DNA of 56,112 bases from an uncultured Christensenella sp. (GTDB lineage Bacteria; Bacillota; Clostridia; Christensenellales; UBA1242). The stretch spans positions 1 to 56,112 of the forward strand of contig CAZVVP010000003.1 in NCBI GenBank assembly GCA_964630515.1, written 5' to 3'. A model generated the notes under the pieces. The model saw only the letters and a list, made by a program, of their open reading frames with translations. It was not told the origin of the DNA and ran no database searches. The position numbers and the translations under genes were made by a program. The number at the start of each line of letters is the position of its first letter. Within the stretch, counting starts at the first letter, position 1. Shown in pieces: positions 5,367 to 47,538 of this stretch.

Positions 5367-6654
5367 AGAAATTAGACAAGCCTACGCTATATTAAAAAAA
5401 GTATATTTTCAGCAATCTTATGCTGGGATAGAGTTAAATAAGACAATAAGCCGTGAAAGAGAGAATAGTAATACTAAACTTGTTACTAAGATTGTTTATG
5501 GCGTAATTGAGAATGATATACAATTACAATACATTATTGATTTATTTACTAAGGCTAAGCCAGAAGATGAAATTAATCTATTGCTAAAGATTGGAACTTA
5601 CATTATAAAAAACATCAACAGTATTCCTGAGTTTGCTTGTGTAAATGAAATTGTTGAAATAGCTAAAGCAATCAAGAATACAAAAATTGCAGGATTTGTG
5701 AATGCTACGTTGAAAAATATTTGCAAAACAAAGGTAAAATTTCCAGATAGAAACAAAAATATTATTAAATACTTCAGTGTTATTTATTCTTATCCAGAAT
5801 GGGTTATCGAAGAATTATTAAGGGAACATGATGAGAACTTTGTTGAAAATCTTTTGGCTCATGAACTTACAACATTAACTCATATAAGGATTTTAACTGA
5901 AAGAATAAGTGTTGAAGATTTTATTAAAATATTAGATGAGAAAAAAATTGAGTATCATAAATCAGCATATGATAATACATTCTATGTAGAATACTCTTCA
6001 TTAATTAAGATGTCAGAATTACATGATAAATATATTGTTCAAGGGCTTCCAAGTATAATTACTGCCAATAATGTACCTAAAGAGTCAAAATTAATTCTTG
6101 ATTTATGTGCAAGTCCTGGTGGAAAAAGTGTATTAATGGCACAAAATAATCCTGATTCAATAATTTATGCTTGTGATGTTTCTGATAATAGAGTAGAATT
6201 AATTAATAAGTATGCAAAATCATATGATGTTACAAATATTAAAATATTTCAAAATGATGCGACAATCTTGAAAGAAGATTGGATAGAAAAGTTCGATACT
6301 GTTCTTTGTGATGTGCCTTGTAGCAATTTAGGTATTGCTAACAAAAAACCTGATGTGTTGTTAAATCGTTCCAAAGAAAGTGTTGGAGAACTTAAGGATA
6401 TTCAACTAAATATTTTACAAACCGCATCAGACTATGTAAAAAAGGGCGGAGTGTTGATTTATAGCACTTGCTCTATAATGAAAGAAGAGAACGAAAAAGT
6501 CATAGGCAAATTTTTGCAAAGTCATAATAACTTTGTACTAACTGAGGTTGATACTCATGGTGTAGAAGTTGAAAAATATCATAATTTATGCACTTTTTAT
6601 CCTCATATTAGTAATTGCGAAGGTTTTTTCATAGGGAGATTAAAGAAAAAATGA
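5359..6654 (+). CDS. rsmB: 16S rRNA (cytosine967-C5)-methyltransferase RsmB/Sun
   Basis: NusB-like N-terminal half, then SAM MTase motifs DLCASPGGKS, DVPCSNLG and YSTCS. ATG 5359 overlaps the fmt stop; the track start 5347 has its SD directly abutting the ATG. Confidence 0.9.
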   Translation: MNKEIRQAYAILKKVYFQQSYAGIELNKTISRERENSNTKLVTKIVYGVIENDIQLQYIIDLFTKAKPEDEINLLLKIGTYIIKNINSIPEFACVNEIVEIAKAIKNTKIAGFVNATLKNICKTKVKFPDRNKNIIKYFSVIYSYPEWVIEELLREHDENFVENLLAHELTTLTHIRILTERISVEDFIKILDEKKIEYHKSAYDNTFYVEYSSLIKMSELHDKYIVQGLPSIITANNVPKESKLILDLCASPGGKSVLMAQNNPDSIIYACDVSDNRVELINKYAKSYDVTNIKIFQNDATILKEDWIEKFDTVLCDVPCSNLGIANKKPDVLLNRSKESVGELKDIQLNILQTASDYVKKGGVLIYSTCSIMKEENEKVIGKFLQSHNNFVLTEVDTHGVEVEKYHNLCTFYPHISNCEGFFIGRLKKK

Positions 6655-7697
6655 AAATTTTATTAGATTACAATTTACAAGAATTGGAAGAGTTGGTTGT
6701 AGCTTTAGAAGAGCCTAAGTTTAGGGCTAAACAATTATTAGATGCTCTTTATAATGGAAAAAATTATAATGATAAACTTAATTTAAATAAGAGTTTAGTA
6801 GACAAGCTTTCTAATAGTAACTGCGTAATGCAACCTATTGAGATATATAAAGCAAAAGAGAGCAAAGATGGTAGTATAAAATTTCTTTACAAATTGTGTG
6901 ATGGAAATATTATCGAAGGGGTTCTTTTGAATTATACATTTGGTAACACAATTTGTATAAGCACACAAGTTGGTTGCAAAATGAACTGTGCTTTCTGTGC
7001 TAGTAGTCTTAATGGATTTGTTAGAAATTTAACAGCTGGAGAAATTATTGGTCAAATTACTGCTGTAAACAAATATCTTGGCGGAAATCTTAAAAACAGA
7101 AAAATTTCTAACATAGTCCTAATGGGAAGCGGAGAACCTTTTGATAATTTTGATAATGTTGCAAGATTTTTAAGTCAAGTCACTGATGAGAAATTGTTTA
7201 ATTTCAGTGTTAGAAATATCACAATTTCGACTTGCGGAATTGCCCCAAAAATTGAGAAATTAGCAGATTTAGGATATAATGTTACTTTATCAATTTCGCT
7301 TCATGCACCTAACGATACTGTAAGAAAACAAATTATGCCAATTGCAAAAAGCTATCCTATCTCAACTATTTTGGAAAGTGCTAAATATTATAATTTGATT
7401 ACAAGTCGAAGAATTACAATTGAATACACTTTAATTGAGGGAGTTAATAATACAACTAATCATGCTAAGCAATTAGTTGCTTTGCTTAAAGATTTCCCAT
7501 GTCATGTTAATTTAATTAAATTAAATGAAGTCGATGGTAGAAATTTGAAAAGTCCAACAATTTCTAGCTGTAAGCAATTTTTAAATATATTGACTACTAA
7601 TCAAATCAGTGCAACACTTAGAAGGAGTCTAGGTGATGATATAGAAGGTGCTTGTGGTCAATTAAGAAATAAAGAATTAAGTAAGAAGGGTGATTAA
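6651..7697 (+). CDS. rlmN: 23S rRNA/tRNA adenine-C2 methyltransferase RlmN (radical SAM)
   Basis: CKMNCAFCAS (CxxxCxxC), GSGEP, C-terminal GACGQL. ATG 6651 forms an ATGA overlap with the rsmB TGA stop (6652-6654). Confidence 0.93.
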   Translation: MKILLDYNLQELEELVVALEEPKFRAKQLLDALYNGKNYNDKLNLNKSLVDKLSNSNCVMQPIEIYKAKESKDGSIKFLYKLCDGNIIEGVLLNYTFGNTICISTQVGCKMNCAFCASSLNGFVRNLTAGEIIGQITAVNKYLGGNLKNRKISNIVLMGSGEPFDNFDNVARFLSQVTDEKLFNFSVRNITISTCGIAPKIEKLADLGYNVTLSISLHAPNDTVRKQIMPIAKSYPISTILESAKYYNLITSRRITIEYTLIEGVNNTTNHAKQLVALLKDFPCHVNLIKLNEVDGRNLKSPTISSCKQFLNILTTNQISATLRRSLGDDIEGACGQLRNKELSKKGD

Positions 7698-8577
7698 TAT
7701 TAAAGCACAAATTTTAAAAATAATTAATGGTGGAATGACGGCTATCAGTAATGGGATAGTATATAATTGCGAACCTAATGGCAAGTCGAAGAAATCCAAA
7801 ATTATGGTTGGAGACATTGTTGAATTAGAAGAAAATAACTATGGCGATAAATATGTTGTTAGTAAGATTGAGAAAAGAAAAAATTCTTTGTTGAGACCGC
7901 CACTTTGCAATATAGATAATCTATTTATTATAATGTCTAAATTGCCCAAAACAGATTATTTGCTAGTAGATAAACTGATTATTTATTGTAGAATTAATAA
8001 TATAAAACCTTATATTATAGTTAACAAAATAGATTTGTACACTGAAGAAGAAATTAACGACTTAAGAAAGCAATTTAGTCCAAGTGTAGAAGATATTATT
8101 TTTGTTAGTGGAAAACAAAAAGTAGGTATTGATAAAATTTTGCAATATTTACCTAAAAATTTATCAGTATTTGCTGGACAAAGTGCTGTAGGAAAAAGTA
8201 CAATACTTAACGCAATAAGTCCTAATTTAAATCTTTCAACCAATGATTTAAGCAAAAAAATTGGTCGTGGAAAGCACACAACTAGACATAGTGAGATTTA
8301 TATACTTGATGATAATATTATGATTGCAGACACGCCTGGATTTAGCTTACTTGACCTAGACATAGATATAGAACCAAAAGACTTATCTAAATATTATGTT
8401 GATTTTGAAGAATTTTTAGATTGTAAATATTCTAATTGTGACCATACGAATCTACAAGACAAGGATTGTATGCTAGCAAGAGCGGTTATTGATGAAAAAG
8501 TAGATAAAAATAGATATATAAGATATACTGAGCTGTACAAAAAATTAAGAGAAAAATGGAGAAAAAAATATGATTAA
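7690..8577 (+). CDS. rsgA: ribosome small subunit-dependent GTPase A (RsgA/CpgA)
   Basis: Circularly permuted GTPase motifs NKIDL, GQSAVGKSTILN and DTPGF; zinc cluster CKYSNCDHTNLQDKDC. GTG 7690 overlaps the rlmN stop by 8 nt. Confidence 0.9.
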   Translation: MINIKAQILKIINGGMTAISNGIVYNCEPNGKSKKSKIMVGDIVELEENNYGDKYVVSKIEKRKNSLLRPPLCNIDNLFIIMSKLPKTDYLLVDKLIIYCRINNIKPYIIVNKIDLYTEEEINDLRKQFSPSVEDIIFVSGKQKVGIDKILQYLPKNLSVFAGQSAVGKSTILNAISPNLNLSTNDLSKKIGRGKHTTRHSEIYILDDNIMIADTPGFSLLDLDIDIEPKDLSKYYVDFEEFLDCKYSNCDHTNLQDKDCMLARAVIDEKVDKNRYIRYTELYKKLREKWRKKYD

Positions 8578-9256
8578 ATTATTCCCTAGTACAAACCCTA
8601 GCCCTGAGAACAATTTACTTCATTATATTAGAGTTTTGCAAGAAGCGGGTGTGGAATTTATGCACTGTGATGTAATGGACGGGATTTTTGTAAAAAATTC
8701 ATGCTTAGATGTAGATTTGCTTAAAAAAATTGCTACTGAGACTACAGTAGGACTTGATGTCCATCTAATGATTACAGAACCTCTTTCTAATATAGACAAA
8801 TACATCAAACTTCCTGCAACGTATATTACAACTCATTATGAAGCATATAATAGTGTTCAAAATATTATAAAAATGTCTAAGTATATAAGAAATAATAATA
8901 AACTAATGGGACTAGCCATAAAACCTTCGACACCAATTTCAAAAATTAAAAATATTTTGAGTTTATGTGATTTAATTTTGGTCATGAGCGTTGAGCCAGG
9001 TGAGAGTGGTCAAGTCTTTATGGAATCTACTTATAACAAAATCAAAGAACTTAGACAAGAAATAGACATTAATAATTTGAATATAAAAATTCAAGTTGAT
9101 GGTGGTATTAACGAAAATAATATGCAAAAAGTAGTCAACGCAGGTGCTGATATTCTTGTTATGGGTAATGCAGTATTTATTGCTAATGACAGAGCAAAAT
9201 TAGTCAAGAGCGTGAAATTGTTATATAAGCAAAACGAACAACAAAGTGACATTTAA
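8570..9256 (+). CDS. rpe: ribulose-phosphate 3-epimerase
   Basis: HCDVMDG, DVHLM, MSVEPG and VDGG motifs; overlaps the rsgA stop; conserved position after rsgA. Confidence 0.88.
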   Translation: MIKLFPSTNPSPENNLLHYIRVLQEAGVEFMHCDVMDGIFVKNSCLDVDLLKKIATETTVGLDVHLMITEPLSNIDKYIKLPATYITTHYEAYNSVQNIIKMSKYIRNNNKLMGLAIKPSTPISKIKNILSLCDLILVMSVEPGESGQVFMESTYNKIKELRQEIDINNLNIKIQVDGGINENNMQKVVNAGADILVMGNAVFIANDRAKLVKSVKLLYKQNEQQSDI

Positions 9257-9332
9257 TTAACTATTTTCATATATATAACCATGAAAAATTCATATTCTTT
9301 GTTAAGATATATAAAATAAAAATGAGGTATAT

Positions 9333-9900: not shown

Positions 9901-10590
9901 ATGAAAAAGTTCTATTTTTTTATTTTTATTATGATTTTTGCAAGTTTAATTTTTGTAAGTTGTGTTGACAACACCTACAACTTAGCACTCAATAATCTAT
10001 CTGAGATTAGAAACCAAATATTGATTGCTGAAGATGAAGATATTTATATGACCTTTATGAGTGGTAAAAGAGAAAAGGATTACAACTTAGATGGTGTATC
10101 AAACGAATTAATCGATTTTTCCATAATTAATCTTTATTTTAAAGACAAGAATTACGAATATAACGAAAAAAAAGTTGAGTATTCTCTAACCATCGATGAG
10201 ACTCTCTATAGCGGTGAAATGATTAATAACCCTTACGATAATAGTTTTGTAATAGATTTAGGCTTATTAGTTGATGAACTTAACTCTTTAGATATTACAA
10301 TCAAAGTAAATGAAGAAAGTAAAACTTATACATTAAATAACATTAGTAAAGCTTGGAAATATAGCAACGAAAAGGCACTAGAGACAGTATGTAAAGATTT
10401 GAAAGATTATTTACAACAAGAAATCAAAGATAATAAACTTAATGCTGAAGTTGTTATTAAGATTGTTTATAATAACGACTTGAGTGATACATATTATTGG
10501 TATGTACAAATCGTAACTATCAATGGCAACACATATACAGAATTAGTTAATCCGCAAACTAACGAAATACTTGCCAAAAATATTTCTTAA
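9901..10590 (+). CDS. putative lipoprotein, function unknown
   Basis: Signal peptide with lipobox LIFVSC; SD taggag; C-terminal YYWYVQIVTINGNTYTELVNPQTNEIL is PepSY-like. Own terminator. Confidence 0.65.
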   Translation: MKKFYFFIFIMIFASLIFVSCVDNTYNLALNNLSEIRNQILIAEDEDIYMTFMSGKREKDYNLDGVSNELIDFSIINLYFKDKNYEYNEKKVEYSLTIDETLYSGEMINNPYDNSFVIDLGLLVDELNSLDITIKVNEESKTYTLNNISKAWKYSNEKALETVCKDLKDYLQQEIKDNKLNAEVVIKIVYNNDLSDTYYWYVQIVTINGNTYTELVNPQTNEILAKNIS

Positions 10591-10599
10591 TACTAAACT

Positions 10600-10634
10600 A
10601 ATCACAAACATAATATTTTGTTTGTGATTTTTTA
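10600..10634 (+). terminator. rho-independent terminator
   Basis: Stem aatcacaaaca / tgtttgtgatt (10600-10610 / 10619-10629), 8-nt loop, T-run to 10634. Confidence 0.8.
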
Positions 10635-10655
10635 TAATTAATTTTTATTTCAGTA

Positions 10656-10684
10656 TTTACAAAGCATAAACTGTATGTTAAAAT
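10656..10684 (+). promoter_or_regulatory. sigma-A type promoter
   Basis: TTTACA, 17-nt spacer, TAAAAT with TGt extended -10; about 60 nt upstream of ATG 10743. Confidence 0.5.
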
Positions 10685-10742
10685 GAACATAATATCAAAC
10701 TACATTTATTTTTATTAATTTTAAACACAATGGAGGAAGAAA

Positions 10743-11444
10743 ATGAAACAAATTAATTATGTTTCTGACGATATGGACTTTAATGCTGGAAGTTTAATTT
10801 CAAATATAATGAATACTTTTGCAGAAAATAATATAGCTCCATATTCAACTGGTAATGGCAGAATTATGACTGGTTCACAAGTTTACTATGATACTGCTAA
10901 TCAAAATTTGCTTACAAGAGGTGGATTTTGTAGAAAAACGAAATGTATTGATAAGAATAACCATGAACTAGAAAGTTATCTAGAATTTAGACTATCTAAA
11001 GATGATGAAATTACAAAAATTGATTTGATTAATGATGAAATTACAAATGAAGAAATTTGTAAATTGTCAGGAATAGATGATTTAAATGAGGTACTTTCTT
11101 TGCAAGGAAACAACTTTCATTTTTATTTTCAAAAGGTAGACTTAGAATTAATGTTTACAAATAGAGGAAGTTATGTTGACTTTATTATGCAAACAGTCAC
11201 TGCCAAACACTTTAATTCTGAAACGGAAAAGAAGGTAGCGTTCTTTTCGTTAATAGACCAAACTAATGAACGCCAAAATGTAGAGAAATACGAAGAGAAA
11301 ACAAGCGAAATATTTAGTGTATTTAATTCAGTTATAAGTAATTATAATCTTGAGAAAGTTTCTGGTTATAGATATTCAGAACTTATGAACTTATTTCCGG
11401 AATCAACAACAACTCTTAACTTTGAAGATTGTAACGAATTATAA
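10743..11444 (+). CDS. hypothetical cytoplasmic protein
   Basis: 233-aa ORF with SD ggaggaag 6 nt upstream. No signal peptide or TM segment, and no motif I recognise. Confidence 0.65.
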   Translation: MKQINYVSDDMDFNAGSLISNIMNTFAENNIAPYSTGNGRIMTGSQVYYDTANQNLLTRGGFCRKTKCIDKNNHELESYLEFRLSKDDEITKIDLINDEITNEEICKLSGIDDLNEVLSLQGNNFHFYFQKVDLELMFTNRGSYVDFIMQTVTAKHFNSETEKKVAFFSLIDQTNERQNVEKYEEKTSEIFSVFNSVISNYNLEKVSGYRYSELMNLFPESTTTLNFEDCNEL

Positions 11445-11500
11445 GACAAAAAAGTTTTTTCATTATTTGAAAAGACTTTTTTTGTTAGTTAAAACTATTA

Positions 11501-12337
11501 ATGTATGATAAAATGTTATTGATGGACAAAGAGAATTCTATTCTAAAAACAGTTCTAATTACTTTAATAACGTTGATTTCTATAACAATTGTTTGTTGTT
11601 TAATTTTTTGGTTCTTCTTTCCAGTAACTACAGCAAATATCTGTTATAACTTAGGTCTATATGAGTCATCGGCAAGTCTTAATATAAGAGATTATAATAA
11701 TACAAAAAATATAAACTCAATTGCAAAAGCAACAGATACTTATATTTATTTACAAGATTACGAAAAATATATTGATGCTTTTGAGCTTTTTTATCAAGAT
11801 GAAAACTATTTCGCATATATAAATGATTTGAATACAAAAAATTATAATAATAAAGAATTCAATATTGTAACAAAAAGCTCTCTTATTAATGAAAACAATT
11901 ATTATTGCAATTATTATATTAAATCATTAATTAAAAATGACGAAATATCAAAAGCAAAATCATTTGTTTTGGAAAATATTGTGGAATATTCTAAAACACA
12001 AATTGACTATTTAACTCCAGATAATTATCTTTTATCCAATATGGTTGATATAAAGGAATATAGCTGGTTTATAGAACAAAACTTTAACAACAAAAGTATC
12101 TTAGAAATAATTTATAGTAATTTTAATATTATGTATGAAGAAATACTATTGTTGAATAACGAAACAAATATTGATGAAATATATTTTTTAAATTTCAGTA
12201 GAACAAGTTTAATGATTGGTTTAGATATACAAGAGATTTGTAATAACCATATTCAAAATATATTATCTACAGATAACATATTAACATTACAAGCAAAACT
12301 AACAGAATTAGACGGTATAATAAAAGAGCATATTTAA
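11501..12337 (+). CDS. hypothetical membrane-anchored protein
   Basis: 278-aa ORF with a single N-terminal TM (TVLITLITLISITIVCCLIFWFFF), then an N/Y/I-rich soluble part. The start is ambiguous among ATGs 11501, 11513 and 11522. Confidence 0.55.
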   Translation: MYDKMLLMDKENSILKTVLITLITLISITIVCCLIFWFFFPVTTANICYNLGLYESSASLNIRDYNNTKNINSIAKATDTYIYLQDYEKYIDAFELFYQDENYFAYINDLNTKNYNNKEFNIVTKSSLINENNYYCNYYIKSLIKNDEISKAKSFVLENIVEYSKTQIDYLTPDNYLLSNMVDIKEYSWFIEQNFNNKSILEIIYSNFNIMYEEILLLNNETNIDEIYFLNFSRTSLMIGLDIQEICNNHIQNILSTDNILTLQAKLTELDGIIKEHI

Positions 12338-12349
12338 AGAGGATAGCAT

Positions 12350-13921
12350 ATGAACAAAGAAATACGACAATTAGAAAAAAATATTTTACAATCATATGTA
12401 AATAAAATATTTGATAAAGAAAAAATTATTGATGAAGCATTTTTAAAAGTTGTTGTAGATATATCTCTCAAAAATAAAGTTGAAATTGCTGTTATTTCAA
12501 ATAGAAAGGGGGAAATTCTAGATGTTGTAACAGGGGATTCTGTATCTACTTCAATTGATTCCAGAGTGCTTGCAGATAATGGTATAAGAATTCTACACAC
12601 ACATCCATTTGCTTCATCAACGCTAAGTGACAAAGATAAACTTCTTTTGAAAAAAAACAACTTGGATTACATAGTGGCTGTATCTGTTAATGATAATGGA
12701 GTAGGGGATTTTAGTATAGGTTATATAACAAAAGACAAAATTGTTGAAGAAAAGTATGATTATGCTTTGTATATTAACAAATACGGAATTATGGAAAAAA
12801 TTAATTATATTATTAAAGAAAATAGAAAAAATAAGCCTAGCACAATTAGTTCAGACCTTGAGAAAGACAAAGCAATACTGGTTGCCGTTGATATTAACAG
12901 AAGTTATTTAAACCTTGAAGAGTCTTTAGAAGAACTAAAAGGTTTATGCCTAACAGACAATATTGAAGTTGTCGGAGTTGTAACACAAAACAAATCTGCT
13001 CCTGACCCAAAATTCCTAATTGGTATTGGAAAATTAGAAGAATTAAAAGACTTAGTAATAAGAACTGAAGCAAATTTAGTTGTTTTTGAAAACGAATTAT
13101 CTGCAGGTAAACAAGTTAATTTGTCTAACTATCTTAGTGTTAAAGTTATAGACAGAAGTATGCTAATTCTAGATATCTTTGCAAAAAGAGCTAGAACAAA
13201 TGAGGGTAAACTACAAGTTGAATTAGCACAACTTAAATATATGCTACCTAGATTAAAATCTTATATTGACTCTTCCAACAGATATGGTGGAGGAGTTGGT
13301 ATGCGTGGACCGGGTGAAACAAAACTAGAATTGAACAGGCGTGTTGTTGAGAATAATATCATTAAGAAATCAAACGAATTAAAGAAGCTAAAGCAACATA
13401 GAGAACTTAACAGAAAAAATAGAAAAGTCAATACAAATCCAACAATCTCTATTGTAGGATATACCAATAGTGGAAAAAGTAGCCTTCTTAATCTTTTAGC
13501 AAAAGATGATATTTATGCTAAAGATGAATTGTTCGCGACCTTAGACACAACTTCTAGAAAAGTTTGGTTAGGAGACAAGAAAGAAGTAATTATAACTGAT
13601 ACTGTTGGGTTTATTAGCAATTTACCACATGAATTTATAGAAGCATTTAGTAGTACATTGGAGGAATGTATTTATTCAGATTTGTTGTTACTTGTTGTAG
13701 ACATATCTAATCCAAGTTACGAATCTCAAATAAAAGTTTCATTAGATGTATTAGAAAAATTAGGTTCTAGTGTACCAATTATAAAAGTGTATAATAAGTG
13801 TGATAAAGTAGATATAACTGAATTTAAAGAAAAATTAAATGATGGTATTATTATCTCAGTAAAGACTAATTATGGTATCGAAAATTTGAAACAGAAAATT
13901 AAAAATTTTTTTAAAAAATAG
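12350..13921 (+). CDS. hflX: GTPase HflX with N-terminal JAMM/MPN-like extension
   Basis: HflX N-domain IDRSMLILDIFAKRARTNEGKLQVELAQLKY and GPGETKLE; G1 GYTNSGKSSLLN, G3 DTVGF, G4 NKCD. SD agagga. The first ~170 aa are extra and contain HTHPFASSTLSDKD. Confidence 0.9.
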   Translation: MNKEIRQLEKNILQSYVNKIFDKEKIIDEAFLKVVVDISLKNKVEIAVISNRKGEILDVVTGDSVSTSIDSRVLADNGIRILHTHPFASSTLSDKDKLLLKKNNLDYIVAVSVNDNGVGDFSIGYITKDKIVEEKYDYALYINKYGIMEKINYIIKENRKNKPSTISSDLEKDKAILVAVDINRSYLNLEESLEELKGLCLTDNIEVVGVVTQNKSAPDPKFLIGIGKLEELKDLVIRTEANLVVFENELSAGKQVNLSNYLSVKVIDRSMLILDIFAKRARTNEGKLQVELAQLKYMLPRLKSYIDSSNRYGGGVGMRGPGETKLELNRRVVENNIIKKSNELKKLKQHRELNRKNRKVNTNPTISIVGYTNSGKSSLLNLLAKDDIYAKDELFATLDTTSRKVWLGDKKEVIITDTVGFISNLPHEFIEAFSSTLEECIYSDLLLLVVDISNPSYESQIKVSLDVLEKLGSSVPIIKVYNKCDKVDITEFKEKLNDGIIISVKTNYGIENLKQKIKNFFKK

Positions 13922-14046
13922 TAGCACACAAATTTACTTCCTGCATATTATGAAGTAGAAAGCAAGACAAATGTTTTGTTTCTAACAGCTGTTAAATATA
14001 ATATTTTTGCTTTTGAAAAAACGATTCAAAGTAGGAGGTTATGTTT

Positions 14047-14256
14047 ATGTTTTTTGGTCATATGAACGGTGGCTGTGGTTGCGGTGGAAACATGAATCAC
14101 AAAGATAAAGACAACGATTGTTGCTGCTTAATAATTTTAATTTTATTATTATGTGGTAATTGCAATTTTGGTTTTGGTGGAGACAACTGCTGTTGTGATA
14201 TCATTATCTTATTGTTATTATTAAGTTGCTGCGGTTGCGGTTCTAATCATTGTTAA
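14047..14256 (+). CDS. Cys/Gly-rich tiny hydrophobic protein, YjcZ-like (sporulation-associated tiny TM family?)
   Basis: AGGAGG at 14033-14038 lies 8 nt before ATG 14047 (the track start 14041 is only 2 nt from the SD). 14 Cys and 12 Gly in 71 aa, with two L/I runs. Own terminator. Confidence 0.6.
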   Translation: MFFGHMNGGCGCGGNMNHKDKDNDCCCLIILILLLCGNCNFGFGGDNCCCDIIILLLLLSCCGCGSNHC

Positions 14257-14404: not shown

Positions 14405-14986
14405 ATGAGAATTACAAGTACTAAATTTATTAAGAGTGTTGCTAATGGCAAAGATATAATTAATGATGGCAAGAATATGATTGCCTTTGTAGGAAGAAGT
14501 AATGTTGGAAAAAGTTCATTACTTAATTTTTTGGTAAATAACAAGAATATGGCTAGAACAAGTAGTACACCTGGAAGAACAAGGTTAATTAATTATTTTC
14601 TTATTAATAATGATTTTTATTTTGTTGATTTACCTGGTTATGGTTTTGCTAAAGGCTCTAAAGAAGAAAGTTCTAAATGGGACGATTTGATGGACCCATT
14701 CTTTACAGATAGCGAAAAATTGAAATTAGTTTGTGTTTTAGTTGATTGCAGAATTTCTCCAACAGAATTAGACCGCAATATGATAACTTATTTAACATAT
14801 TATCAAATACCTTTTATTGTAATAGCAACCAAAAGTGATAAATTGCCTAAAACAAAATTAAAACCAACTATCCAAAAACTTGCTAGTGATTTAGGACTAG
14901 CAATTGGCAATGTGTATATCACAAGCTCTTCTAACAAACAAGGAAGAGATGAAGTTTTACAAAAATTTGAACAATTCTTGGACTAG
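14405..14986 (+). CDS. engB: ribosome biogenesis GTP-binding protein EngB/YsxC
   Basis: G1 GRSNVGKSSLLN, G3 DLPGYG, G4 TKSDK; typical ~195 aa length. Confidence 0.92.
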   Translation: MRITSTKFIKSVANGKDIINDGKNMIAFVGRSNVGKSSLLNFLVNNKNMARTSSTPGRTRLINYFLINNDFYFVDLPGYGFAKGSKEESSKWDDLMDPFFTDSEKLKLVCVLVDCRISPTELDRNMITYLTYYQIPFIVIATKSDKLPKTKLKPTIQKLASDLGLAIGNVYITSSSNKQGRDEVLQKFEQFLD

Positions 14987-14990
14987 GAAA

Positions 14991-15977
14991 ATGGAAAATA
15001 AAATACAAAGATTAGACAATTACTCAACTATAGATTCGTATAAAACATATTTCAATATGTTTATTTTTACAGTTATCTTTTCGCTTATCTATAATTTAAT
15101 TATTTCGATACTTATTAGTGCCGGGGGACTTTCAGCTGAAACAATTGATAGTAACCCAATTATTATGTATGCACAATGTTTTGTAAGTCCCTTAATGTTT
15201 TTTTCTTTGTTCTTATGGCAAAATAGGGGGAAAAAATACAACATAAAGCAAATTTTAGGTGTAAATAAAAAAATAAGTTATAAGACTGTTCTTTTATCAA
15301 TTATAGTTGCTATATTTTGTCTTTTCTTATTTTCAAATATAGCAACGCTATTTAATTATTCATTAAAATTTATAGGTTTTAATCCACCTGATGAAATTAA
15401 TTTGCTTAAAGATAATTTTGGTCACTTGCTACTTAATATTTTTGTTCTAGCTTTACTTCCTGCAGTTTTTGAAGAACTTATCTTTAGAGGAATAGTATTT
15501 AAAGGCTTAATTACAGACCACAAACCAATTGTAGCAATATTATTAACTACATTTATGTTTACCTTTATGCATGGGACTTTACAACAAACTTTTTATCAAT
15601 TAATTTTGGGTCTAGTTATAACCTTAATTATGTATGTAACAGATAATATACTATATCCAATTATTGTGCATTTTTGCAATAACGCTATAGTTATTATCGT
15701 TGATTATATCACTTATCATCAAGAAGTGGCAGGAACATTTGCTACTGACTTTTTTAGCATAGTTAATTATTTCTTATTAGCATTTGTGGGAGTAGTTTTG
15801 TTTTATTTAATTTTTGATAAATTAATTAAAAATAACAAAGCCACAACTACTACAACTACTGAGTTTAAATCATTTAAGAAATACTCCTTAAGAGAAAAAG
15901 AGTACTGTGTATTAAGTTTATCTTTGGCTGTAGTGATTTGGGTAATTACTACTATCACAATTCTTGTTCAGGGGTAA
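14991..15977 (+). CDS. CPBP family intramembrane glutamic endopeptidase (CAAX protease/Abi family)
   Basis: Multi-TM protein with motifs PAVFEELIFRG, FMHG and HFCNN. ATG 14991 has SD aggaaa just after the engB stop; the longer track start 14904 would overlap engB by 83 nt. Confidence 0.8.
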   Translation: MENKIQRLDNYSTIDSYKTYFNMFIFTVIFSLIYNLIISILISAGGLSAETIDSNPIIMYAQCFVSPLMFFSLFLWQNRGKKYNIKQILGVNKKISYKTVLLSIIVAIFCLFLFSNIATLFNYSLKFIGFNPPDEINLLKDNFGHLLLNIFVLALLPAVFEELIFRGIVFKGLITDHKPIVAILLTTFMFTFMHGTLQQTFYQLILGLVITLIMYVTDNILYPIIVHFCNNAIVIIVDYITYHQEVAGTFATDFFSIVNYFLLAFVGVVLFYLIFDKLIKNNKATTTTTTEFKSFKKYSLREKEYCVLSLSLAVVIWVITTITILVQG

Positions 15978-15981
15978 AGAT

Positions 15982-17112
15982 ATGGAATATATTAAAGAAC
16001 AGAAATTTAAATCCGTTTACAAAACATATCTTATATATTTTATTGTATTGATTTGTTTTATTGCAGTTAGAATTATGTCTTCATTGGGGACATTTTCCGA
16101 ATTAAATTCTAATATTGCTGATGTTATTTATACTATATTAATAGAAGTTGTTTGTTTATTCATAATACCTTTAATCCTTTATTGTGTTTTTATTAAAGTA
16201 AAACCAAAACAAGTATTTCGTACTTGTAATTTTAGTAAAATAAGTTTCAAAACAGTACTTTTATCAATTCTATTAGGCACAGTAATGTATTTTTTGACTG
16301 TATTGTTATCTACATTCTTTAACGGAATAATAATCTTGTTTGGATATCAATCTAGTGGTAGTTCTACAGAAGAATATACTCTAATAACATACATTATTCA
16401 GATTTTTACTACTGCATTACTTCCAGCAGTGTGTGAAGAATTCTTACACAGAGGTATACTTTTACAAGGTACAAAACATATAGGATTTACTCGTTCAATT
16501 ATTATTAGTTCATTTCTATTTGGGTTGATACACTTAAACATTACCCAAGTATTTTATGCATCTGTACTTGGTTTGATTATAGGATATGTCTCAGTTGTTA
16601 CTAAAAATATTTGGCCAGCCATTATTATACATTTTATGAATAATTTCTTATCAATTACTGACAATTATCTTTCGTCCAATGTTACTTGGTACAAAACATT
16701 TATGCAAAGTATCTACAGTTGGTTTAATAGCATTAATTATATTTTAACAGTCCTAATAATAACAGTAGTTTTGATGTTGTTAGTTTTGATTATATATTTC
16801 TTAATTACAAGATTGTATTACAATGGATTGGTAAAGAAAGTAGAAAAAAGCATATCGGAGGTTTATCAAAAGAATGGACAGGTCTCAACTAATATGCCAA
16901 TTCTTATCGAAAATGAAGAGGTCTTAAACTTAGTAGAAAGTACAACTACTCTTAATTTAGATTTTAATAGTATAAAAAACCCACTTGCATTATTGATGCC
17001 AAAACAAACTAAAGTTTATAGAAGCACATACAAAGATAAAATATTTCTTAAAGGCTCATTTGTTCTCAGCATAATTATTACTATATTTACATTTATTTGG
17101 GGGTTGATGTAA
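15982..17112 (+). CDS. CPBP family intramembrane glutamic endopeptidase, second paralog
   Basis: Motifs PAVCEEFLHRG, GLIHL and HFMNN; multi-TM. ATG 15982 lies 5 nt after the upstream stop. Confidence 0.8.
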   Translation: MEYIKEQKFKSVYKTYLIYFIVLICFIAVRIMSSLGTFSELNSNIADVIYTILIEVVCLFIIPLILYCVFIKVKPKQVFRTCNFSKISFKTVLLSILLGTVMYFLTVLLSTFFNGIIILFGYQSSGSSTEEYTLITYIIQIFTTALLPAVCEEFLHRGILLQGTKHIGFTRSIIISSFLFGLIHLNITQVFYASVLGLIIGYVSVVTKNIWPAIIIHFMNNFLSITDNYLSSNVTWYKTFMQSIYSWFNSINYILTVLIITVVLMLLVLIIYFLITRLYYNGLVKKVEKSISEVYQKNGQVSTNMPILIENEEVLNLVESTTTLNLDFNSIKNPLALLMPKQTKVYRSTYKDKIFLKGSFVLSIIITIFTFIWGLM

Positions 17113-17582: not shown

Positions 17583-17598
17583 TAGGGGAGTGATAACA

Positions 17599-18450
17599 AT
17601 GCTAACTGAAACTTTAGTTGAGAAAACAAAAAAAATAGAAAAAATCAGTTTTGCAATTTTTATTATTAATAAATTGAAAAACAAAAAGGTACTTGGATTA
17701 ACGACAACAGAATGGTTAAAAAAAGAATTTGTTGGGTTGCCTCTTTATATTATAGACAATAATAACGACGATAATATAAAAGAAAAAATAAAACCTTATG
17801 CTATTAATTATGATTATATCTTTATAATCAATAACAATACGCCATTTATAACAAAAAATCTGATTGATAATATAATGGAATATATTTGGTTTAAAAATAG
17901 TCTTGCTTGTAAGCTATATTTAGGTGCAGTATATAAGACAAGTTACTATTTAGCTACAAACGAAATTAATTATGATAATTTCTACATGCAAAACCAAGAA
18001 CAATTTGCTATAGTCGAAACAGAAGAACAAGTCGCTATGGCAGAAAAATATTTTTCAAAAAAGATAATATTAGAAAACCAGAAAAAAGGTGTAATGTTTG
18101 AAAATCCAAATTCTGTTATATTGTCTCCATTCTGCGAAATAGGAAAAGGTACAACAATTTTTAGCAATTGTGTAATTAAAGGCAAGACAAAGATAGGTAG
18201 TAACGCAATTATAAATAATAATACTACTATCATAGACTCAACCATAGGAAACAACACTTCTATGTCTAATAGCAATATTACAAAATGCAAAATTGGAAAC
18301 AATGTTATAATTAGTCCTTATTGCACAATAAACAAATCAAAAATCGCGGATAATTGCTTTATAGAAGGGTATTGTTTAATTGACAACTTTTCAGTAAACA
18401 AAAATGAATTAATAAAAGCAAGAACTACATTACAAAAAGAAAAAAACTAA
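17599..18450 (+). CDS. GlmU-like protein with degenerate uridyltransferase motifs and truncated left-handed beta-helix
   Basis: GGGGAG SD 8 nt before ATG 17599. Colinear with GlmU (FAIFII.. for FAVVLAAGxGTRM; IFIINNNTPFIT for IVICGDTPLL; linker helix EEQVAMAEKYFSKKI; hexapeptide repeats IGKGTTIFSNCVIKGKTKIGSNAIINNNTTIIDSTIGNN), but only 284 aa against ~450. Confidence 0.6.
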   Translation: MLTETLVEKTKKIEKISFAIFIINKLKNKKVLGLTTTEWLKKEFVGLPLYIIDNNNDDNIKEKIKPYAINYDYIFIINNNTPFITKNLIDNIMEYIWFKNSLACKLYLGAVYKTSYYLATNEINYDNFYMQNQEQFAIVETEEQVAMAEKYFSKKIILENQKKGVMFENPNSVILSPFCEIGKGTTIFSNCVIKGKTKIGSNAIINNNTTIIDSTIGNNTSMSNSNITKCKIGNNVIISPYCTINKSKIADNCFIEGYCLIDNFSVNKNELIKARTTLQKEKN

Positions 18451-18460
18451 AGGAGAACTT

Positions 18461-19027
18461 ATGCTTGTTTTAGTAGGACTAGGAAATCCAGACAAAATTT
18501 ACGAAAAGACTTATCATAACATAGGCTTTATGGCAATTGATTATTTTGCTAAGCGTCATAGTATAGAATTTACAAAAAATAAATATAACGCAAAAGTTGC
18601 AGAAGCTATGATTAATGGCGAAAAAGTAATATTATTAAAGCCAACGACTTACATGAACTTAAGCGGAAATAGCGTAAGTGCTATTATTAATCAATTGAAA
18701 CTTCCTCTAGATAACTTATGTATAATTTATGATGACATAGATTTAGAAGTTGGAAGTCTTAGGTTAAGAACTTCAGGAAGTGCAGGAACACATAACGGAA
18801 TGAGAGACATTATAAACAAGTTAAGTTCAAAGGATTTCTTAAGACTAAGAGTAGGTATTGGACGACCTGAAAAAATGTCTTTAATTGATTATGTTTTGTC
18901 AAAAATATCTAAGGATAGAGAATCTATATTTAATAAAGTTTTTGAAGAAGTTGCAAATGTTCTTGATGAATTTATAATAAAAAAAGGAAAAATAGAATCA
19001 AAAAGCATTTCAGTACAAAATGATTAA
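18461..19027 (+). CDS. pth: peptidyl-tRNA hydrolase
   Basis: GLGNPD..Y..TYHNIGF, GTHNGMRDI and RLRVGIGRP motifs; SD aaggag. Confidence 0.95.
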   Translation: MLVLVGLGNPDKIYEKTYHNIGFMAIDYFAKRHSIEFTKNKYNAKVAEAMINGEKVILLKPTTYMNLSGNSVSAIINQLKLPLDNLCIIYDDIDLEVGSLRLRTSGSAGTHNGMRDIINKLSSKDFLRLRVGIGRPEKMSLIDYVLSKISKDRESIFNKVFEEVANVLDEFIIKKGKIESKSISVQND

Positions 19028-22510: not shown

Positions 22511-24331
22511 ATGAAACACATTAAAAAATTTCTATCAATGCTAGTTTTTGTTGCAATTTTTGTAGCTTCCATGTTTTCAATGACTGCTTGTAACTTGATT
22601 GTCACTGATGTTACTGCTTACTATGAACAAGTCGTAGCTACTTTTGAATTTGAGAACAAAACAATCAATGTAAAGATGTCAGACCTTAATAATACTTTCA
22701 AAAATTATGGTTATTCTAGATATAAGCAAGGATATTATTCTTCATTGGAAGAGTGTATTAAGGATTCTTTGGACTATTATATTCAAAAAACTTTACTTAT
22801 TAATCATATAGCTGTGTCTTTGCAAGAAATTTACGAAGATACTAACAATGAGTTATATAATTTGTCATTTGTTGATTTTGAGAACTTTGATTGGGAAACC
22901 ACATTAGAAAATATCTATGAAAGTGATACTGCTAATGCTAAAGAGATAAGATATAACGCTTTCACTTCTATGCAAGAAACAGTTGATGGTTTTGTAGAGG
23001 ATATATTGGAAGAAGACGATAAGTTAGCAGAAATAGAAACTGATCAAGAAGAAACTCTTAGAGATACTAAAGAAGAATATGAATCTGCTCTTGTTGTTTA
23101 CGAAGAAGATATTTTTGATGATGATGGCAAATATTTAGATACAGTAACTAAAGTAAAATATAATATCGAAGAATTAGAACTATTTAATAAGTCAAATGTT
23201 AGCAAACACTTTGAACTAGTAAATAATTATAGTCAAGATTTGACAGCAAAAGGTTATAATAAATATATAAACTATCTACAACAAACTGCTAAATCAGAAG
23301 AAAGAAGTACTAAGATAGAAGATGTTATCGCTTTTGAAGAAAAGGCCAACATTAAGGCGGAATTTGAAAACCAACTTTTGAAATTGTATGAATATTGGTA
23401 TCAAACAAATCAAGAAGTTCCAACAGAAAAGATTGTTGAGTATTACAAAAACCAATATAATAGCCAAAAGAAAGAGTTTGAAGATAATATCAATGCCTAT
23501 AGAACTGCGATGAATGATTATACTAGTAATTATGTTTACTATAACAATAATTCTGGGCAAGAGTATGTTGTTGTTAATCATATCTTGATTAACTTCTCTG
23601 CCGAACAGAAAGCTGAATTGGAGAAGCTAGAAGCAGATTATGAAAGAGACAAGACTAGTTTTGCTAATGACACAGATGCCTTAGAGGCTTTAGAAAAAAA
23701 ATATGAAAAAGACAGAATAAATGTTATTGTGACTACTAAATCAGTTTATGAAGTAGATGGAGTACAGAAAGAAGATTATATCGGCAATATAATTAACGAT
23801 ATCAAAACTTATGTTTCTACAAATAACATCAAATCAAATGAAATCATAAGCGAAAAAGAGTTGTTAACTAAGAAAGCTAAGAATTTTGAAGATATGATGT
23901 ATATTTATAATGACGATAGTGGAAATATGAACTCAGATTTTTATTATGCTATTAATGTAAATGAAGGCGTTGATTCTCAATATGTTACAGAATTTACTGA
24001 CGGTGGAATTGATTTATATAAAAACTATCAACCAGGTGATGTATTAACTTATCCAGTAATTAGTACTTATGGAATCCATATTATGTTCTATTCTGGTGTT
24101 GCTGGAAACATTATAGAATCTATCGATTCATTAACAGCAGAAATGTTACTTACAAACACAGTAAATCCTGCTAGTGACAAAACTATTTTCGAATATGTTT
24201 ATGATACTGTAGAATCAGATTCTGCCCTAGTTGACAATTATAATAATTATGTAAATAGTTTATTAGCACAAATGTATAATTCTGCTAATATTATAACTGA
24301 TGAATACAAATATAACGATCTATGGAGTTAA
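22511..24331 (+). CDS. PrsA/SurA-like parvulin-type peptidyl-prolyl isomerase lipoprotein
   Basis: Lipobox SMTAC. Parvulin hallmarks VVVNHILINF ... DDSGN ... TYGIHIMFY. Usual position downstream of mfd in Firmicutes. Confidence 0.7.
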   Translation: MKHIKKFLSMLVFVAIFVASMFSMTACNLIVTDVTAYYEQVVATFEFENKTINVKMSDLNNTFKNYGYSRYKQGYYSSLEECIKDSLDYYIQKTLLINHIAVSLQEIYEDTNNELYNLSFVDFENFDWETTLENIYESDTANAKEIRYNAFTSMQETVDGFVEDILEEDDKLAEIETDQEETLRDTKEEYESALVVYEEDIFDDDGKYLDTVTKVKYNIEELELFNKSNVSKHFELVNNYSQDLTAKGYNKYINYLQQTAKSEERSTKIEDVIAFEEKANIKAEFENQLLKLYEYWYQTNQEVPTEKIVEYYKNQYNSQKKEFEDNINAYRTAMNDYTSNYVYYNNNSGQEYVVVNHILINFSAEQKAELEKLEADYERDKTSFANDTDALEALEKKYEKDRINVIVTTKSVYEVDGVQKEDYIGNIINDIKTYVSTNNIKSNEIISEKELLTKKAKNFEDMMYIYNDDSGNMNSDFYYAINVNEGVDSQYVTEFTDGGIDLYKNYQPGDVLTYPVISTYGIHIMFYSGVAGNIIESIDSLTAEMLLTNTVNPASDKTIFEYVYDTVESDSALVDNYNNYVNSLLAQMYNSANIITDEYKYNDLWS

Positions 24332-34138: not shown

Positions 34139-34167
34139 AGCATAGATTGTAATATAGAGGTATGAAA

Positions 34168-37128
34168 ATGACAGAAGTTTTATATGTAATTTTAGAAATA
34201 ATTTGTATCTGCCTAATTGTAGCTTTAGGTGCATTTTTGTTATCACTAATCCTAGACGCTATATTTAGTGCATTCTCAACAACAGAAGGTTTGTATTTTA
34301 ACAAAAATAAGAAAACTGAAAAGGTTGAACATGAGAACGAATATCGTGATATCGTTGTTCATAGCAATGTCGATAATGCTTCAACAAAGATTGAATCAAA
34401 CAATGTAAATTCAAATGAACAATTTACAGAAGTAGACTTTGAAAAAGCAGTCGAAGAGCAAAAAGCACTTCAAGCAAGAAACAATGTGGTTGAATCTGCA
34501 CCTGTTGAGATTAAGGCTGTAGAAGAAGACTATGATAAGATTCTTAATGAAGTAACAAAAGAAGCTTTAACTATCTACAATAAAGAGAGAGAAGAAATAG
34601 CTAAAGCAAAAGCAGAGAAAGCCAAGAAAGAAGCTCAAGAAGCAGAAGAAAGAAGAGCGAAAGAAGAGCAAGAGGCAAAAGCTCTTGCTAAGCAAAGAGA
34701 AGAAGAACAAAAAGCTAAGGCTGTGGATACTTCAGTAAGCAACGAAGCAATTGATAGACAACTTAAAGAATTAAAGCTTGCTAAAGAAATGTTTGAGCAA
34801 GAAAGAAAAGAGTTAGTTAAGTTAAAAGACAAATTATATAAAGAAAAATACAAAAACCCTAGAAATCATAGTAAAAATAAGAATAAATCTTATAACAAAA
34901 ATTATGATAACGGCTCTAATATCTACGAATTGAAAAGAGAGTGGAGACTTAGAGAAACTGAACTTCTTGAATTACAAAGATTACAAAAAGAAGAAAATGA
35001 AAAAGAAATTCAAGCACTTGTTGCTGATTTAGAAAAATCTAAAGAAGAGATTAAGAAAAAACAAGAACAAATCAATGAACTTATCAATAAAGAAAACGAT
35101 TATTCCAACGAATTACAAGAATTAGAATCAATGAAAACTGAATGGAGAAATCGTGAGAAAGAGTTTACAACTAGACAACAACAAGAAATAGCAGAATATG
35201 AGAAGTTATATGACGAATTATCTTATGCTTTAGATTCTTATAAAACTGATATCCAAACTAAAGAAAAAGAAATTGCTAAATTAAGAAAACAAAATGAAGA
35301 TTTCTCTAAAGAAACGGAAGAATTGCAAGCTCTAAGAAACAGCCTTCAAGAGAAAGAAGAGCAAATATATGAATTGAAGGAAAACCATAAACATGATGAC
35401 CAACAATATATTGACTCTTTGATTAGAGAACTAGAAATTTCAAAAGCAGAAATTGAAACAAAGAAAGAAGAAATAGAAGCTCTTAAGAAAGAAAATAGTG
35501 ATGTTTCTGAATATGTAAAAGAACTTGAAGAATTAAAAGACGAATTACAAAACAAACAAAAAGAACTTGAGAATAGACAAGAACAACAAAAAGAAGAAAA
35601 TAATAAACAATTTGATAAATTAACCTTAGAATTAGAAGAATTTATCACTTCAATGGAAAACAAAGAAAAAGAAATCTATTCTCTTAAAGAAAAAGAAAAA
35701 GACTATTCCAATGAAATCATTGAATTGGAAGAAATGAAAAAGGCTTGGGACAAGAAAGAAAAAGAATTAGAACTTGTTCAAGATAGAATGAGAGATGATG
35801 TTCGTAAAGAAATCGAAATTATTGAGTCTAACGTAGATGACTACAATAAGCAAATATCAAAAATCACAAAAGAACTTGAAGAATTAAAGAAAGAATTAGA
35901 TAAAGTTATAAAGAATGTAGGTAGTCACGATAGTAATGTAACAGCTGAAAAGATTACAAACATCAAAGAAGAAATTGACAGCAAAGAGGCTGAATTAAAG
36001 AAGTTACAAAAAGATTTAGACAAAGAATTAATTACTCTTATATCTAAATTAAATAGCGAAATTGATAACTTAAAGATTTTAATTGAAAACAAAGAAACAG
36101 AAATCGAAGAATTTAAGAAATTAAAACAAGATACTTCTGTTCAAAACGAAAAATTAAAATTATTAACAAAACAGTTAAGAACTAGCGAAGATGATTTAAG
36201 AAAATATAGTGATAATTATGATAATTCAACAAACGATGATGGTGATGATTCTGTTAATTACAAATATCAAAAAATTAACAAAATGAGCAGTAAATTAACC
36301 AAAATTATTCAAAATGTTTCTCAAATTGAAAAGGAAAATGCTCAAGTTAAGAAAAATACAGAGCTTATTCGTTTAGAAAATCATAATGCTGAATTAAAAA
36401 ATCAAAACGAAAGACTTAAGAGAATCACTCAAAGTCTTCAAGAAATGAGTCAAAAGAAACAAAATGCAGAAGCTTCAAATGGTCCTATTCAATATGCAAG
36501 CAATAACAACAATGCAACAATTGAATATTCTAAGAAATCTTATAAAAAGGTTATAGAAACAACAACTACTGAATCTTCTGACCAAGACTCGCCAGCAAAA
36601 GTAGATATCCCAACTACTGAAATTATCATTGAAGAAGCTCCTAAGACTAAAGAAGAAAATAAGGATTCTCTTATCGATTCGGAAATAGTAATTGCTAATA
36701 AATCTGAAAAGCCTGTTAAACTTACAAGTGAATATGATATCAAATTACAAAAGCTTGAAGATGAATTAGTAGAAGCTGAAAAAGAATTTAAGAAGATAAG
36801 TAAAGAATATTTACCTTTATTAAGAATTAAAAAAGCTTACGAAAGAGATACTAACAAATTATCTAAGAAAGAAATGCAAGTAGCTAAACAAAAAATTAGT
36901 TTGTATGGTATTAAGAATACAAAAATTAGCGAAGAAAAGTCTGCTAAATTAAAAGCTGATATGCAAACAATTGAAGAATTGCGTGATAGCATTAAATCAT
37001 ATGAGGTTGTTCTTGGACAAAACAAAAACAGACTTCCTGATTTGGAAAAAAATTATAATTTAATTAATAAACATATTTTATTACTTAAAGAAAATATACA
37101 AAACACAATAGATTTAATGAATAATTAA
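34168..37128 (+). CDS. membrane-anchored giant coiled-coil protein, function unknown
   Basis: N-terminal TM (VLYVILEIICICLIVALGAFLLSLILDAIF), then ~940 aa of K/E/L/Q-rich heptad-like sequence. SD agagg 7 nt before ATG 34168. Own promoter and terminator. Confidence 0.8.
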   Translation: MTEVLYVILEIICICLIVALGAFLLSLILDAIFSAFSTTEGLYFNKNKKTEKVEHENEYRDIVVHSNVDNASTKIESNNVNSNEQFTEVDFEKAVEEQKALQARNNVVESAPVEIKAVEEDYDKILNEVTKEALTIYNKEREEIAKAKAEKAKKEAQEAEERRAKEEQEAKALAKQREEEQKAKAVDTSVSNEAIDRQLKELKLAKEMFEQERKELVKLKDKLYKEKYKNPRNHSKNKNKSYNKNYDNGSNIYELKREWRLRETELLELQRLQKEENEKEIQALVADLEKSKEEIKKKQEQINELINKENDYSNELQELESMKTEWRNREKEFTTRQQQEIAEYEKLYDELSYALDSYKTDIQTKEKEIAKLRKQNEDFSKETEELQALRNSLQEKEEQIYELKENHKHDDQQYIDSLIRELEISKAEIETKKEEIEALKKENSDVSEYVKELEELKDELQNKQKELENRQEQQKEENNKQFDKLTLELEEFITSMENKEKEIYSLKEKEKDYSNEIIELEEMKKAWDKKEKELELVQDRMRDDVRKEIEIIESNVDDYNKQISKITKELEELKKELDKVIKNVGSHDSNVTAEKITNIKEEIDSKEAELKKLQKDLDKELITLISKLNSEIDNLKILIENKETEIEEFKKLKQDTSVQNEKLKLLTKQLRTSEDDLRKYSDNYDNSTNDDGDDSVNYKYQKINKMSSKLTKIIQNVSQIEKENAQVKKNTELIRLENHNAELKNQNERLKRITQSLQEMSQKKQNAEASNGPIQYASNNNNATIEYSKKSYKKVIETTTTESSDQDSPAKVDIPTTEIIIEEAPKTKEENKDSLIDSEIVIANKSEKPVKLTSEYDIKLQKLEDELVEAEKEFKKISKEYLPLLRIKKAYERDTNKLSKKEMQVAKQKISLYGIKNTKISEEKSAKLKADMQTIEELRDSIKSYEVVLGQNKNRLPDLEKNYNLINKHILLLKENIQNTIDLMNN
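34880..35900 (+). repeat. five in-frame tandem repeats of 201 nt (67 aa) inside the coiled-coil gene
   Basis: The anchor motif D-x-S-x-E..ELE..K..W/L..KEKEL recurs with D codons at 35098, 35299, 35500 and 35701 (exact 201-nt spacing). Conserved Trp lies at aa 261, 328 and 529, numbered from 34162. Confidence 0.75.
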
Positions 37129-46374: not shown

Positions 46375-46405
46375 ACAAACTCCTTGTATAATAATATATG
46401 ATTAT

Positions 46406-46434
46406 AATATATCACACTTTCAATGCATTGTCAA
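46406..46434 (-). promoter_or_regulatory. lexA promoter
   Basis: On the - strand: TTGACA (46434-46429), 17-nt spacer, TATATT (46411-46406), preceded by TGa. Confidence 0.55.
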
Positions 46435-46445: not shown

Positions 46446-46461
46446 AAAGTTTTTAATAAAA

Positions 46462-47502: not shown

Positions 47503-47538
47503 AATCACTCTTCATTTCAAAATATTCATTATTTAAGT

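Follow-up and report, generated by a model that had tools for sequence, protein, structure and literature searches.

A JAMM/MPN+-like domain at the N-terminus of the ribosome-splitting GTPase HflX in Clostridia and Fusobacteriota

Introduction

Work on HflX has dealt with its part in ribosome splitting, heat shock and antibiotic resistance, and to our knowledge no HflX structure solved so far is of a form that has a JAMM domain. The JAMM enzymes that have been characterised all cut, as far as we know, amide bonds in flexible tails, and their substrate specificity is supplied by ubiquitin-like partners; PfJAMM1 and AfJAMM, for example, are stand-alone proteins that work with the ubiquitin-like SAMPs. 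Here we describe a single open reading frame (ORF) in which an HflX GTPase is preceded by a domain of the JAMM/MPN+ type. It lies at positions 12350 to 13921 of a stretch of 56,112 nucleotides (nt), referred to below as the window, from an uncultured Christensenella sp. (GenBank assembly GCA_964630515.1, contig CAZVVP010000003.1, positions 1 to 56,112 of the forward strand). A preliminary description of this DNA, made from the letters alone, had proposed the fusion on the strength of a metalloprotease signature in the first 170 or so residues.

The HflX–JAMM fusion is apparently an undescribed but widespread domain architecture, HflX and JAMM each being well known. The preliminary description was aware of no link between ribosome rescue and such a cleavage activity, and we found no description of an HflX–JAB/JAMM/MPN fusion in the open-access literature, although a supplement or a domain database may mention one; HflX is also absent from the main text of two Aravind-group surveys of JAB domains. 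Relatives of the window protein carry the public name “GTPase HflX” (one of them from Clostridium perfringens), and no JAB family appears in the Pfam annotations precomputed for them. A 2025 review had already remarked on an unnamed N-terminal extension in Clostridium HflX, and on the extension only (PMC12493154). On the 50S subunit, the ND1 domain of HflX contacts H69 and a loop of the helical domain reaches the peptidyl transferase centre (PMC11831132). In the mycobacterial HflX–50S complex, ND1 is preceded by an N-terminal extension that touches the A-site finger (H38) and uL16 and leads towards H68–H71 (PMC11831132).

Results

The JAMM–HflX ORF (12350–13921, forward strand, as for all of its features given below) encodes a single polypeptide of 523 amino acids (aa) followed by a stop codon, and direct reading of the sequence places a Shine–Dalgarno-like AGAGGA (12338–12343) 6 nt before the ATG at 12350. 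The first 172 residues are not covered by any HflX model. From the AlphaFold2 model, Foldseek, the family profile against the PDB and matches to Prok-JAB, a JAMM/MPN+ (JAB-like) domain was assigned to aa 1–161 (12350–12832), with an MPN core at about aa 29–136 flanked by one N-terminal and two C-terminal helices. The predicted active site comprises E45 (codon at 12482–12484), the putative general-base glutamate, and the block H83-T-H85-P-x6-S93-x2-D96 (HTHPFASSTLSDKD, aa 83–96; 12596–12637), in which H83, H85 and D96 are the predicted zinc ligands and S93 the predicted catalytic serine. The spacing in full, E-x37-H-x-H-x7-S-x2-D, and the position of the block are exactly those originally claimed. 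The 56-kb window, translated in six frames, contains H-x-H-x7-S-x2-D a single time; the expectation from composition is 3e-4 in the window protein and 0.009 over all long ORFs.

Relatives were collected by an exhaustive hidden Markov model search of 1.84 billion cluster representatives with a three-sequence profile (E<=1e-3). Nearly all of the 210 sequences found are HflX proteins, and most of the complete ones are 520–615 aa long and match at the N-terminus. Among the 150 listed relatives covered by motif inspection, about 140 contain H-T-H-P-x6-S-x2-D, the exceptions being mostly truncated fragments. Word-indexed protein searches, run with the window N-domain and with a 40-sequence profile, returned two metagenomic fragments only.

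Conservation in the family is concentrated on the predicted site. The invariant columns of the 40-sequence N-domain alignment are E45, G62, H83, T84, H85, S93 and D96, with no others, and conservation reaches 90% or more at R52, G54, R80, P86, L92, L100 and A110. The same seven residues make up 7 of the 16 invariant columns in a 55-sequence full-length alignment, where mean pairwise identity is 36% in the JAB core, 45–50% in the HflX domains and 13% in the linker region (aa 137–172). Judged from these alignments, the seven N-domain residues are as conserved as the GTPase motifs despite the low mean identity of the JAB core. E45 and S93 are not metal ligands in a JAMM site, and their invariance therefore points to catalysis, beyond metal binding alone.

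A metagenomic protein of 1090 aa (P0007; ENA ERZ27251080, contig k141_1726038, locus L081, positions 6001–9273) begins with an LptE domain, after which come five HflX-type JAB-like domains in tandem (46–75 bits each), and all five copies lack at least one of the two histidine ligands of HxH. Judging by its neighbours (LptF/G, an M50 protease and a class-I tRNA synthetase), the host is a diderm bacterium. From its sequence, the protein looks like an apparently undescribed, catalytically dead repeat use of the domain. Since these copies have lost histidine ligands, the fold appears to be independent of the catalytic residues, and their invariance in the HflX fusions would reflect selection on function. 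The conservation of the catalytic residues in these fusions, non-ligand Glu and Ser included, thus seems best explained by selection for catalysis.

When the 40-sequence N-domain profile was compared with the PDB, the matches were almost solely JAMM/MPN enzymes, aligned through iHTHP...S..D. They include AMSH-like Sst2 (E 2e-4), AMSH-LP (E 8e-4), STAMBP, the MPN domain of Prp8, the RadC homologue 2qlc, an Rpn11-like protein and AfJAMM. A profile match to chloroplast ribosomal protein S19 (E 2e-3) falls outside the motif region, is unsupported by the fold and was rejected as noise for these reasons. With the members scanned singly against Pfam, Prok-JAB (PF14464) was matched by 27 of the 40 at E<1 (best E 5.6e-6) and RadC (PF04002) weakly by 11 (best E 0.0019); no other family recurred. 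A phmmer search of the PDB with the single window N-domain gave one spurious leucine-rich repeat match only, and no HhH domain was detected in the Pfam scan of the window protein.

The fold of the domain was predicted with AlphaFold2, and the model of aa 1–158 has a mean predicted local distance difference test (pLDDT) of 92.7 and a predicted template modelling score (pTM) of 0.88. Among solved structures the top Foldseek match is Pyrococcus furiosus JAMM1 (PfJAMM1; E 1e-4, probability 1.0); Rpn11 and a subunit of the COP9 signalosome (CSN) come next, and the MPN domain of Mov34 stands at rank 8 (E 0.067). Named matches from the viral library are MPN, proteasome-subunit-like and RadC proteins. 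In the model, E45 begins the first β-strand, following helix 29–42; H83 and H85 lie at the end of strand 80–86; S93 stands directly before helix 94–102, and D96 in the first turn of this helix. As modelled, all five residues occupy positions consistent with the canonical JAMM secondary-structure arrangement.

The family-level profile matches, the predicted fold and the conservation of the motif residues, invariant in 40 and 55 sequences, together support the assignment of the N-terminal domain to the JAMM/MPN+ superfamily. The structural interpretation put forward in the preliminary description is therefore supported, and none of the three outcomes that it named as refuting was observed.

The domain is joined to the HflX core by a disordered linker of about 11 residues. 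In the full-length model (pLDDT 89.3, pTM 0.78) the JAMM domain closes with helix 147–161 and ND1 starts at aa 173; the intervening segment (aa 162–172; 12833–12865) was assigned as a flexible linker from its low pairwise identity and low pLDDT (56 for the block 161–170, and below 50 at aa 165–168). ND1 and the helical domain follow at aa 173–361 (12866–13432), as assigned from Pfam, TIGR03156 and Foldseek, and the G domain at aa 362–523 (13433–13918). The NCBIfam model for GTPase HflX, TIGR03156, matches aa 174–519 (E 1.4e-125) with 418.9 bits and so passes its equivalog cut-off of 216.75 bits, in agreement with the earlier reading that HflX starts near aa 173 (KDKAILVAV). The Pfam trio of GTP-bdg_N (aa 190–278), GTP-bdg_M (aa 280–358) and MMR_HSR1 (aa 366–483) covers aa 190–483. 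Sequence reading found all three nucleotide-binding motifs intact: G1 GYTNSGKS (aa 370–377; 13457–13480), G3 DTVGF (aa 417–421; 13598–13612) and G4 NKCD (aa 482–485; 13793–13804). Foldseek matched the HflX part to ribosome-bound HflX/HflXr structures at 38–40% identity, with TM-scores relative to the target of 0.72–0.76.

No C-terminal domain follows the G domain. The E. coli-type model PRK11058 aligns at profile positions 10–356 of 426 only (289 bits against a cut-off of 441 bits), and the window protein terminates 7 residues past this match. Because the alignment ends at position 356, where the protein stops, the E. coli-type C-terminal domain is absent, as had been noted before. In the full-length alignment, 7 of the 55 proteins have at most 11 residues after the G domain (the window protein among them, with five or fewer) and the other 48 have 50–76. 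On the opposite strand, an ORF at 12334–12660 (108 aa, TTG start) was rejected as a gene, lying antisense within the conserved JAMM–HflX coding sequence.

The distribution of the fusion, for which a phyletic survey had been proposed, was determined by scanning one genome per GTDB species with a six-sequence alignment as the query; 80 of 141 loci were kept, across Clostridia and Fusobacteriota. In every one of these 80 loci the domain forms the N-terminus of a single ORF of 519–614 aa with a P-loop and an intact H-x-H-x7-S-x2-D. The hosts include many named species of Clostridium (such as C. carboxidivorans P7, C. tetanomorphum, C. argentinense and C. magnum), Hathewaya, Desnuesiella, Lutisporaceae, Fusobacterium and Leptotrichiaceae, together with Christensenella-like and other uncultured Clostridia known from metagenome-assembled genomes (MAGs). 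Complete isolate genomes are among them. Two size classes are seen: proteins of 519–550 aa without the C-terminal domain, from the window and mostly uncultured gut or rumen Clostridia, and proteins of 589–614 aa in which it is present. The closest relative, from a rumen Clostridia MAG, is 65.5% identical over the full length. JAMM–HflX is hence the usual housekeeping form of HflX in many Clostridia and Fusobacteriota, and is not peculiar to the source genome.

The window is an ordinary housekeeping stretch of a genome of low GC content (about 28%). The order of genes is priA, fmt, rsmB, rlmN, rsgA, rpe, three ORFs without family match and JAMM-hflX, then a small Cys-rich ORF, ysxC, two CPBP proteases, rlmH and pth, and then mfd, ruvCAB, queA, tgt, yajC, gpr, lysS and onwards. 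The presence of gpr, which encodes the germination protease, suggests that the source organism is a spore-former. Clustering of neighbours over the 80 loci returned PBP1A, a 182-aa protein that from its sequence we take to be HPRT, and lineage-specific ORFs of no assigned family. Rfam and tRNA scans of the window gave no matches.

The three consecutive ORFs directly 5′ of hflX (9901–12337, forward strand; 229, 233 and 278 aa) have no family matches. Of the 80 related loci, 17 have a homologue of the first, which is lipoprotein-like, upstream of JAMM-hflX, and 15 have one of the third, which resembles a membrane protein; this is conserved synteny within the Christensenella-like group. Between hflX and ysxC, a putative ORF of 71 aa (14041–14256, forward strand) is extremely rich in Cys and Gly, with two hydrophobic Leu/Ile runs (CCCLIILILLLCG...CCCDIIILLLLLSCCGCG) and no Pfam or NCBIfam matches. 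Two tandem paralogues of Rce1-like/CPBP intramembrane proteases follow at 14904–17112 (forward strand). The TTG start listed for the first, at 14904, overlaps the end of ysxC (14986) by 83 nt, and the true start is therefore probably further downstream.

At 17590–18450 (forward strand), a protein of 286 aa matches only the left-handed β-helix acetyltransferase half of GlmU (positions about 200–354 of 452); its N-terminal ~120 residues are without match, and it is not a full-length GlmU. Four forward-strand ORFs amid well-annotated housekeeping genes (42–1541, 22511–24331, 34162–37128 and 47620–48555; 499, 606, 988 and 311 aa) have no Pfam match. The minus strand carries lexA and a tyrosine recombinase of the Phage_integrase family at 45766–47508. 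The rise in cumulative GC skew ends near these two genes, at about 45–48 kb, and the curve then falls, which may simply follow from the change in gene orientation.

Discussion

We consider it fairly probable that the JAMM domain of JAMM–HflX is an active hydrolase, which HflX tethers to the intersubunit face of the 50S subunit. Because the JAMM catalytic residues never change across the clade, Clostridia and Fusobacteria probably deliver an enzyme to the ribosome via HflX. The N-terminal domain would bind zinc through H83, H85 and D96 and act as a hydrolase. Since the mycobacterial extension attaches at the same point, the JAMM domain is expected to be within linker reach of the H38/uL16 region, and docking of HflX may park it there on a short leash while the ribosome is split or occupied. 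The parked domain would then hydrolyse a ribosome-bound substrate. Since characterised JAMM enzymes cut amide bonds in flexible tails, we take a bond of this kind to be the most likely target; speculatively, the tail could belong to a ribosomal protein, to a bound factor or to the nascent chain. Substrate specificity would come from the GTP-dependent recruitment by HflX.

The preliminary description raised the possibility that ribosome rescue is coupled to a cleavage reaction, with a peptide, tag or nascent chain as the target, and we regard this as plausible. A more specific form of the proposal, which we put forward tentatively and regard as possible rather than likely, is that HflX of Clostridia and Fusobacteriota is a two-enzyme rescue factor, in which the GTPase splits or occupies a stalled or hibernating ribosome and the JAMM domain cleaves on the 50S face. 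Its targets might be the nascent chain or its tRNA linkage, the tail of a ribosomal protein such as uL16 or bL27, or a hibernation or rescue factor bound there. JAMM–HflX would on this view be a ribosome-directed JAMM peptidase without a ubiquitin-like partner, performing a rescue step described in no organism.

Several observations weigh against a JAMM peptidase at the ribosome. In the proposed check against the Pfam JAB and RadC families, clearer at the level of the family, the window protein alone matched Prok-JAB at aa 78–111 with E 0.29 and 11.5 bits against a cut-off of 25 bits, reached none of the curated JAB thresholds and had no match to RadC. The TM-scores of the Foldseek matches to the N-terminal domain are modest (0.41–0.51). 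No ubiquitin-like (beta-grasp), E1-like or E2-like gene neighbours hflX in the window, and neighbour clustering over the 80 loci revealed no conserved small partner gene next to it, so nothing points to a particular substrate. In this the gene differs from the prokaryotic JAB systems associated with ubiquitin-like proteins (SAMP/ThiS/MoaD, CBASS Cap3 and Bil). Moreover, JAB belongs to the deaminase-like fold, and for JAB domains of the RadC type a role on nucleic acids has been argued on the basis of gene contexts (PMC3239186).

This last point favours the main rival explanation, in our estimation an unlikely one, that the JAMM domain acts on a non-peptide bond (RNA, a nucleotide or the peptidyl-tRNA ester on the split 50S subunit) and is nuclease-like or release-factor-like. 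The RadC matches in 11 of the 40 members, the RadC homologue 2qlc among the PDB matches and the RadC proteins among the viral fold matches agree with it, as do the near-invariant R52 and R80, which flank the site and could bind phosphates. The target particle, furthermore, is mostly RNA, and the tether point is near the tRNA acceptor and peptidyl transferase side of the 50S subunit. However, peptidase-type JAMMs (AMSH/Sst2, PfJAMM1 and Rpn11) give the best matches in sequence as well as in fold, Prok-JAB prevails over RadC both in the number of members matched and in best E-value, and the window has a separate pth gene at 18461–19027. We also know of no JAMM enzyme with a biochemically proven nuclease or esterase activity, which counts against this rival.

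A purely structural role, the second rival, we judge to be quite improbable. On this view the domain would be an MPN scaffold, zinc-binding or purely structural, that provides an extra contact with the ribosome, a wedge against subunit association, or an element for regulation or zinc sensing. Many MPN domains are indeed scaffolds, including those of Prp8, Rpn8 and CSN6; the Prp8 domain is among the profile matches, and the LptE fusion, with its five catalytically dead repeats of the same family, makes non-enzymatic roles possible. The mycobacterial N-terminal extension disorders H68–H71, an analogous role, and so steric action by N-terminal additions to HflX is possible (PMC11831132). The conservation pattern nevertheless disfavours this explanation, as all five catalytic positions, non-ligand Glu and Ser included, are invariant in 55 representatives at about 36% domain identity, and the H-x-H-x7-S-x2-D block is intact in 80 of 80 loci; scaffold MPN domains characteristically lose these residues, as the LptE fusion has done. 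It is extremely improbable that the motif arose by chance in an unrelated extension or that the fusion is an artefact of assembly or gene calling. The sub-threshold Prok-JAB match of the window protein and the two relatives yielded by the first word-indexed searches could be read in this way, but the motif would be expected by chance at only 3e-4, family-wide invariance, profile matches to the PDB and the predicted MPN fold are concordant, and the ORF is continuous in 80 independent genomes, complete isolate genomes among them. Both the chance motif and the assembly artefact were rejected on these grounds.

Should the preferred reading of a tethered JAMM hydrolase be true, current models would lack a hydrolytic step that forms part of ribosome rescue or recycling in the genus Clostridium, C. 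perfringens included, in gut Christensenellales-like lineages and in Fusobacterium. The JAMM repertoire would gain an enzyme targeted by a GTPase instead of a ubiquitin-like protein.

Compared with known JAMM proteins, the window domain is closest in fold to PfJAMM1 (5ld9/5lda). This enzyme and AfJAMM (1oi0/1r5x), both minimal archaeal JAMM enzymes, carry E...HxH-x7-S-x2-D on equivalent secondary-structure elements. Identity to these is 15–17%, and the window domain differs in being fused to a GTPase, in its extra terminal helices and in having no beta-grasp or E1 gene nearby. In sequence, the family profile matches the deubiquitinases AMSH, Sst2 and STAMBP best (E 2e-4 to 8e-3), over some 50–60 residues around the zinc site only; the window domain appears too small for the ubiquitin-binding insertions and second zinc site of AMSH. 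With the RadC-like JAB (PF04002) and Prok-JAB (PF14464) families, the HflX N-domain family has the HxHPxG...S..D signature in common. In contrast to RadC, it has neither an HhH domain nor a DNA-repair context, and it does not reliably reach the curated cut-offs.

On the HflX side, the window protein shares ND1, the helical domain and the G domain with the solved HflX and HflXr proteins (E. coli 5ady, Listeria 8a57 and 8uua, M. smegmatis 8vk0), to which about 360 columns align. These proteins have no folded N-terminal enzyme domain, and in the ribosome-bound structures nothing precedes ND1 except the mycobacterial extension; a further difference is the missing C-terminal domain of the window protein. 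Like the JAMM domain, that extension is added N-terminal to ND1, at the H38/uL16/H69 side (PMC11831132, PMC12493154). However, the mycobacterial extension is a peptide of 39–58 aa without an enzyme fold, whereas that of the window protein forms a domain of about 160 aa and has a predicted JAMM catalytic site.

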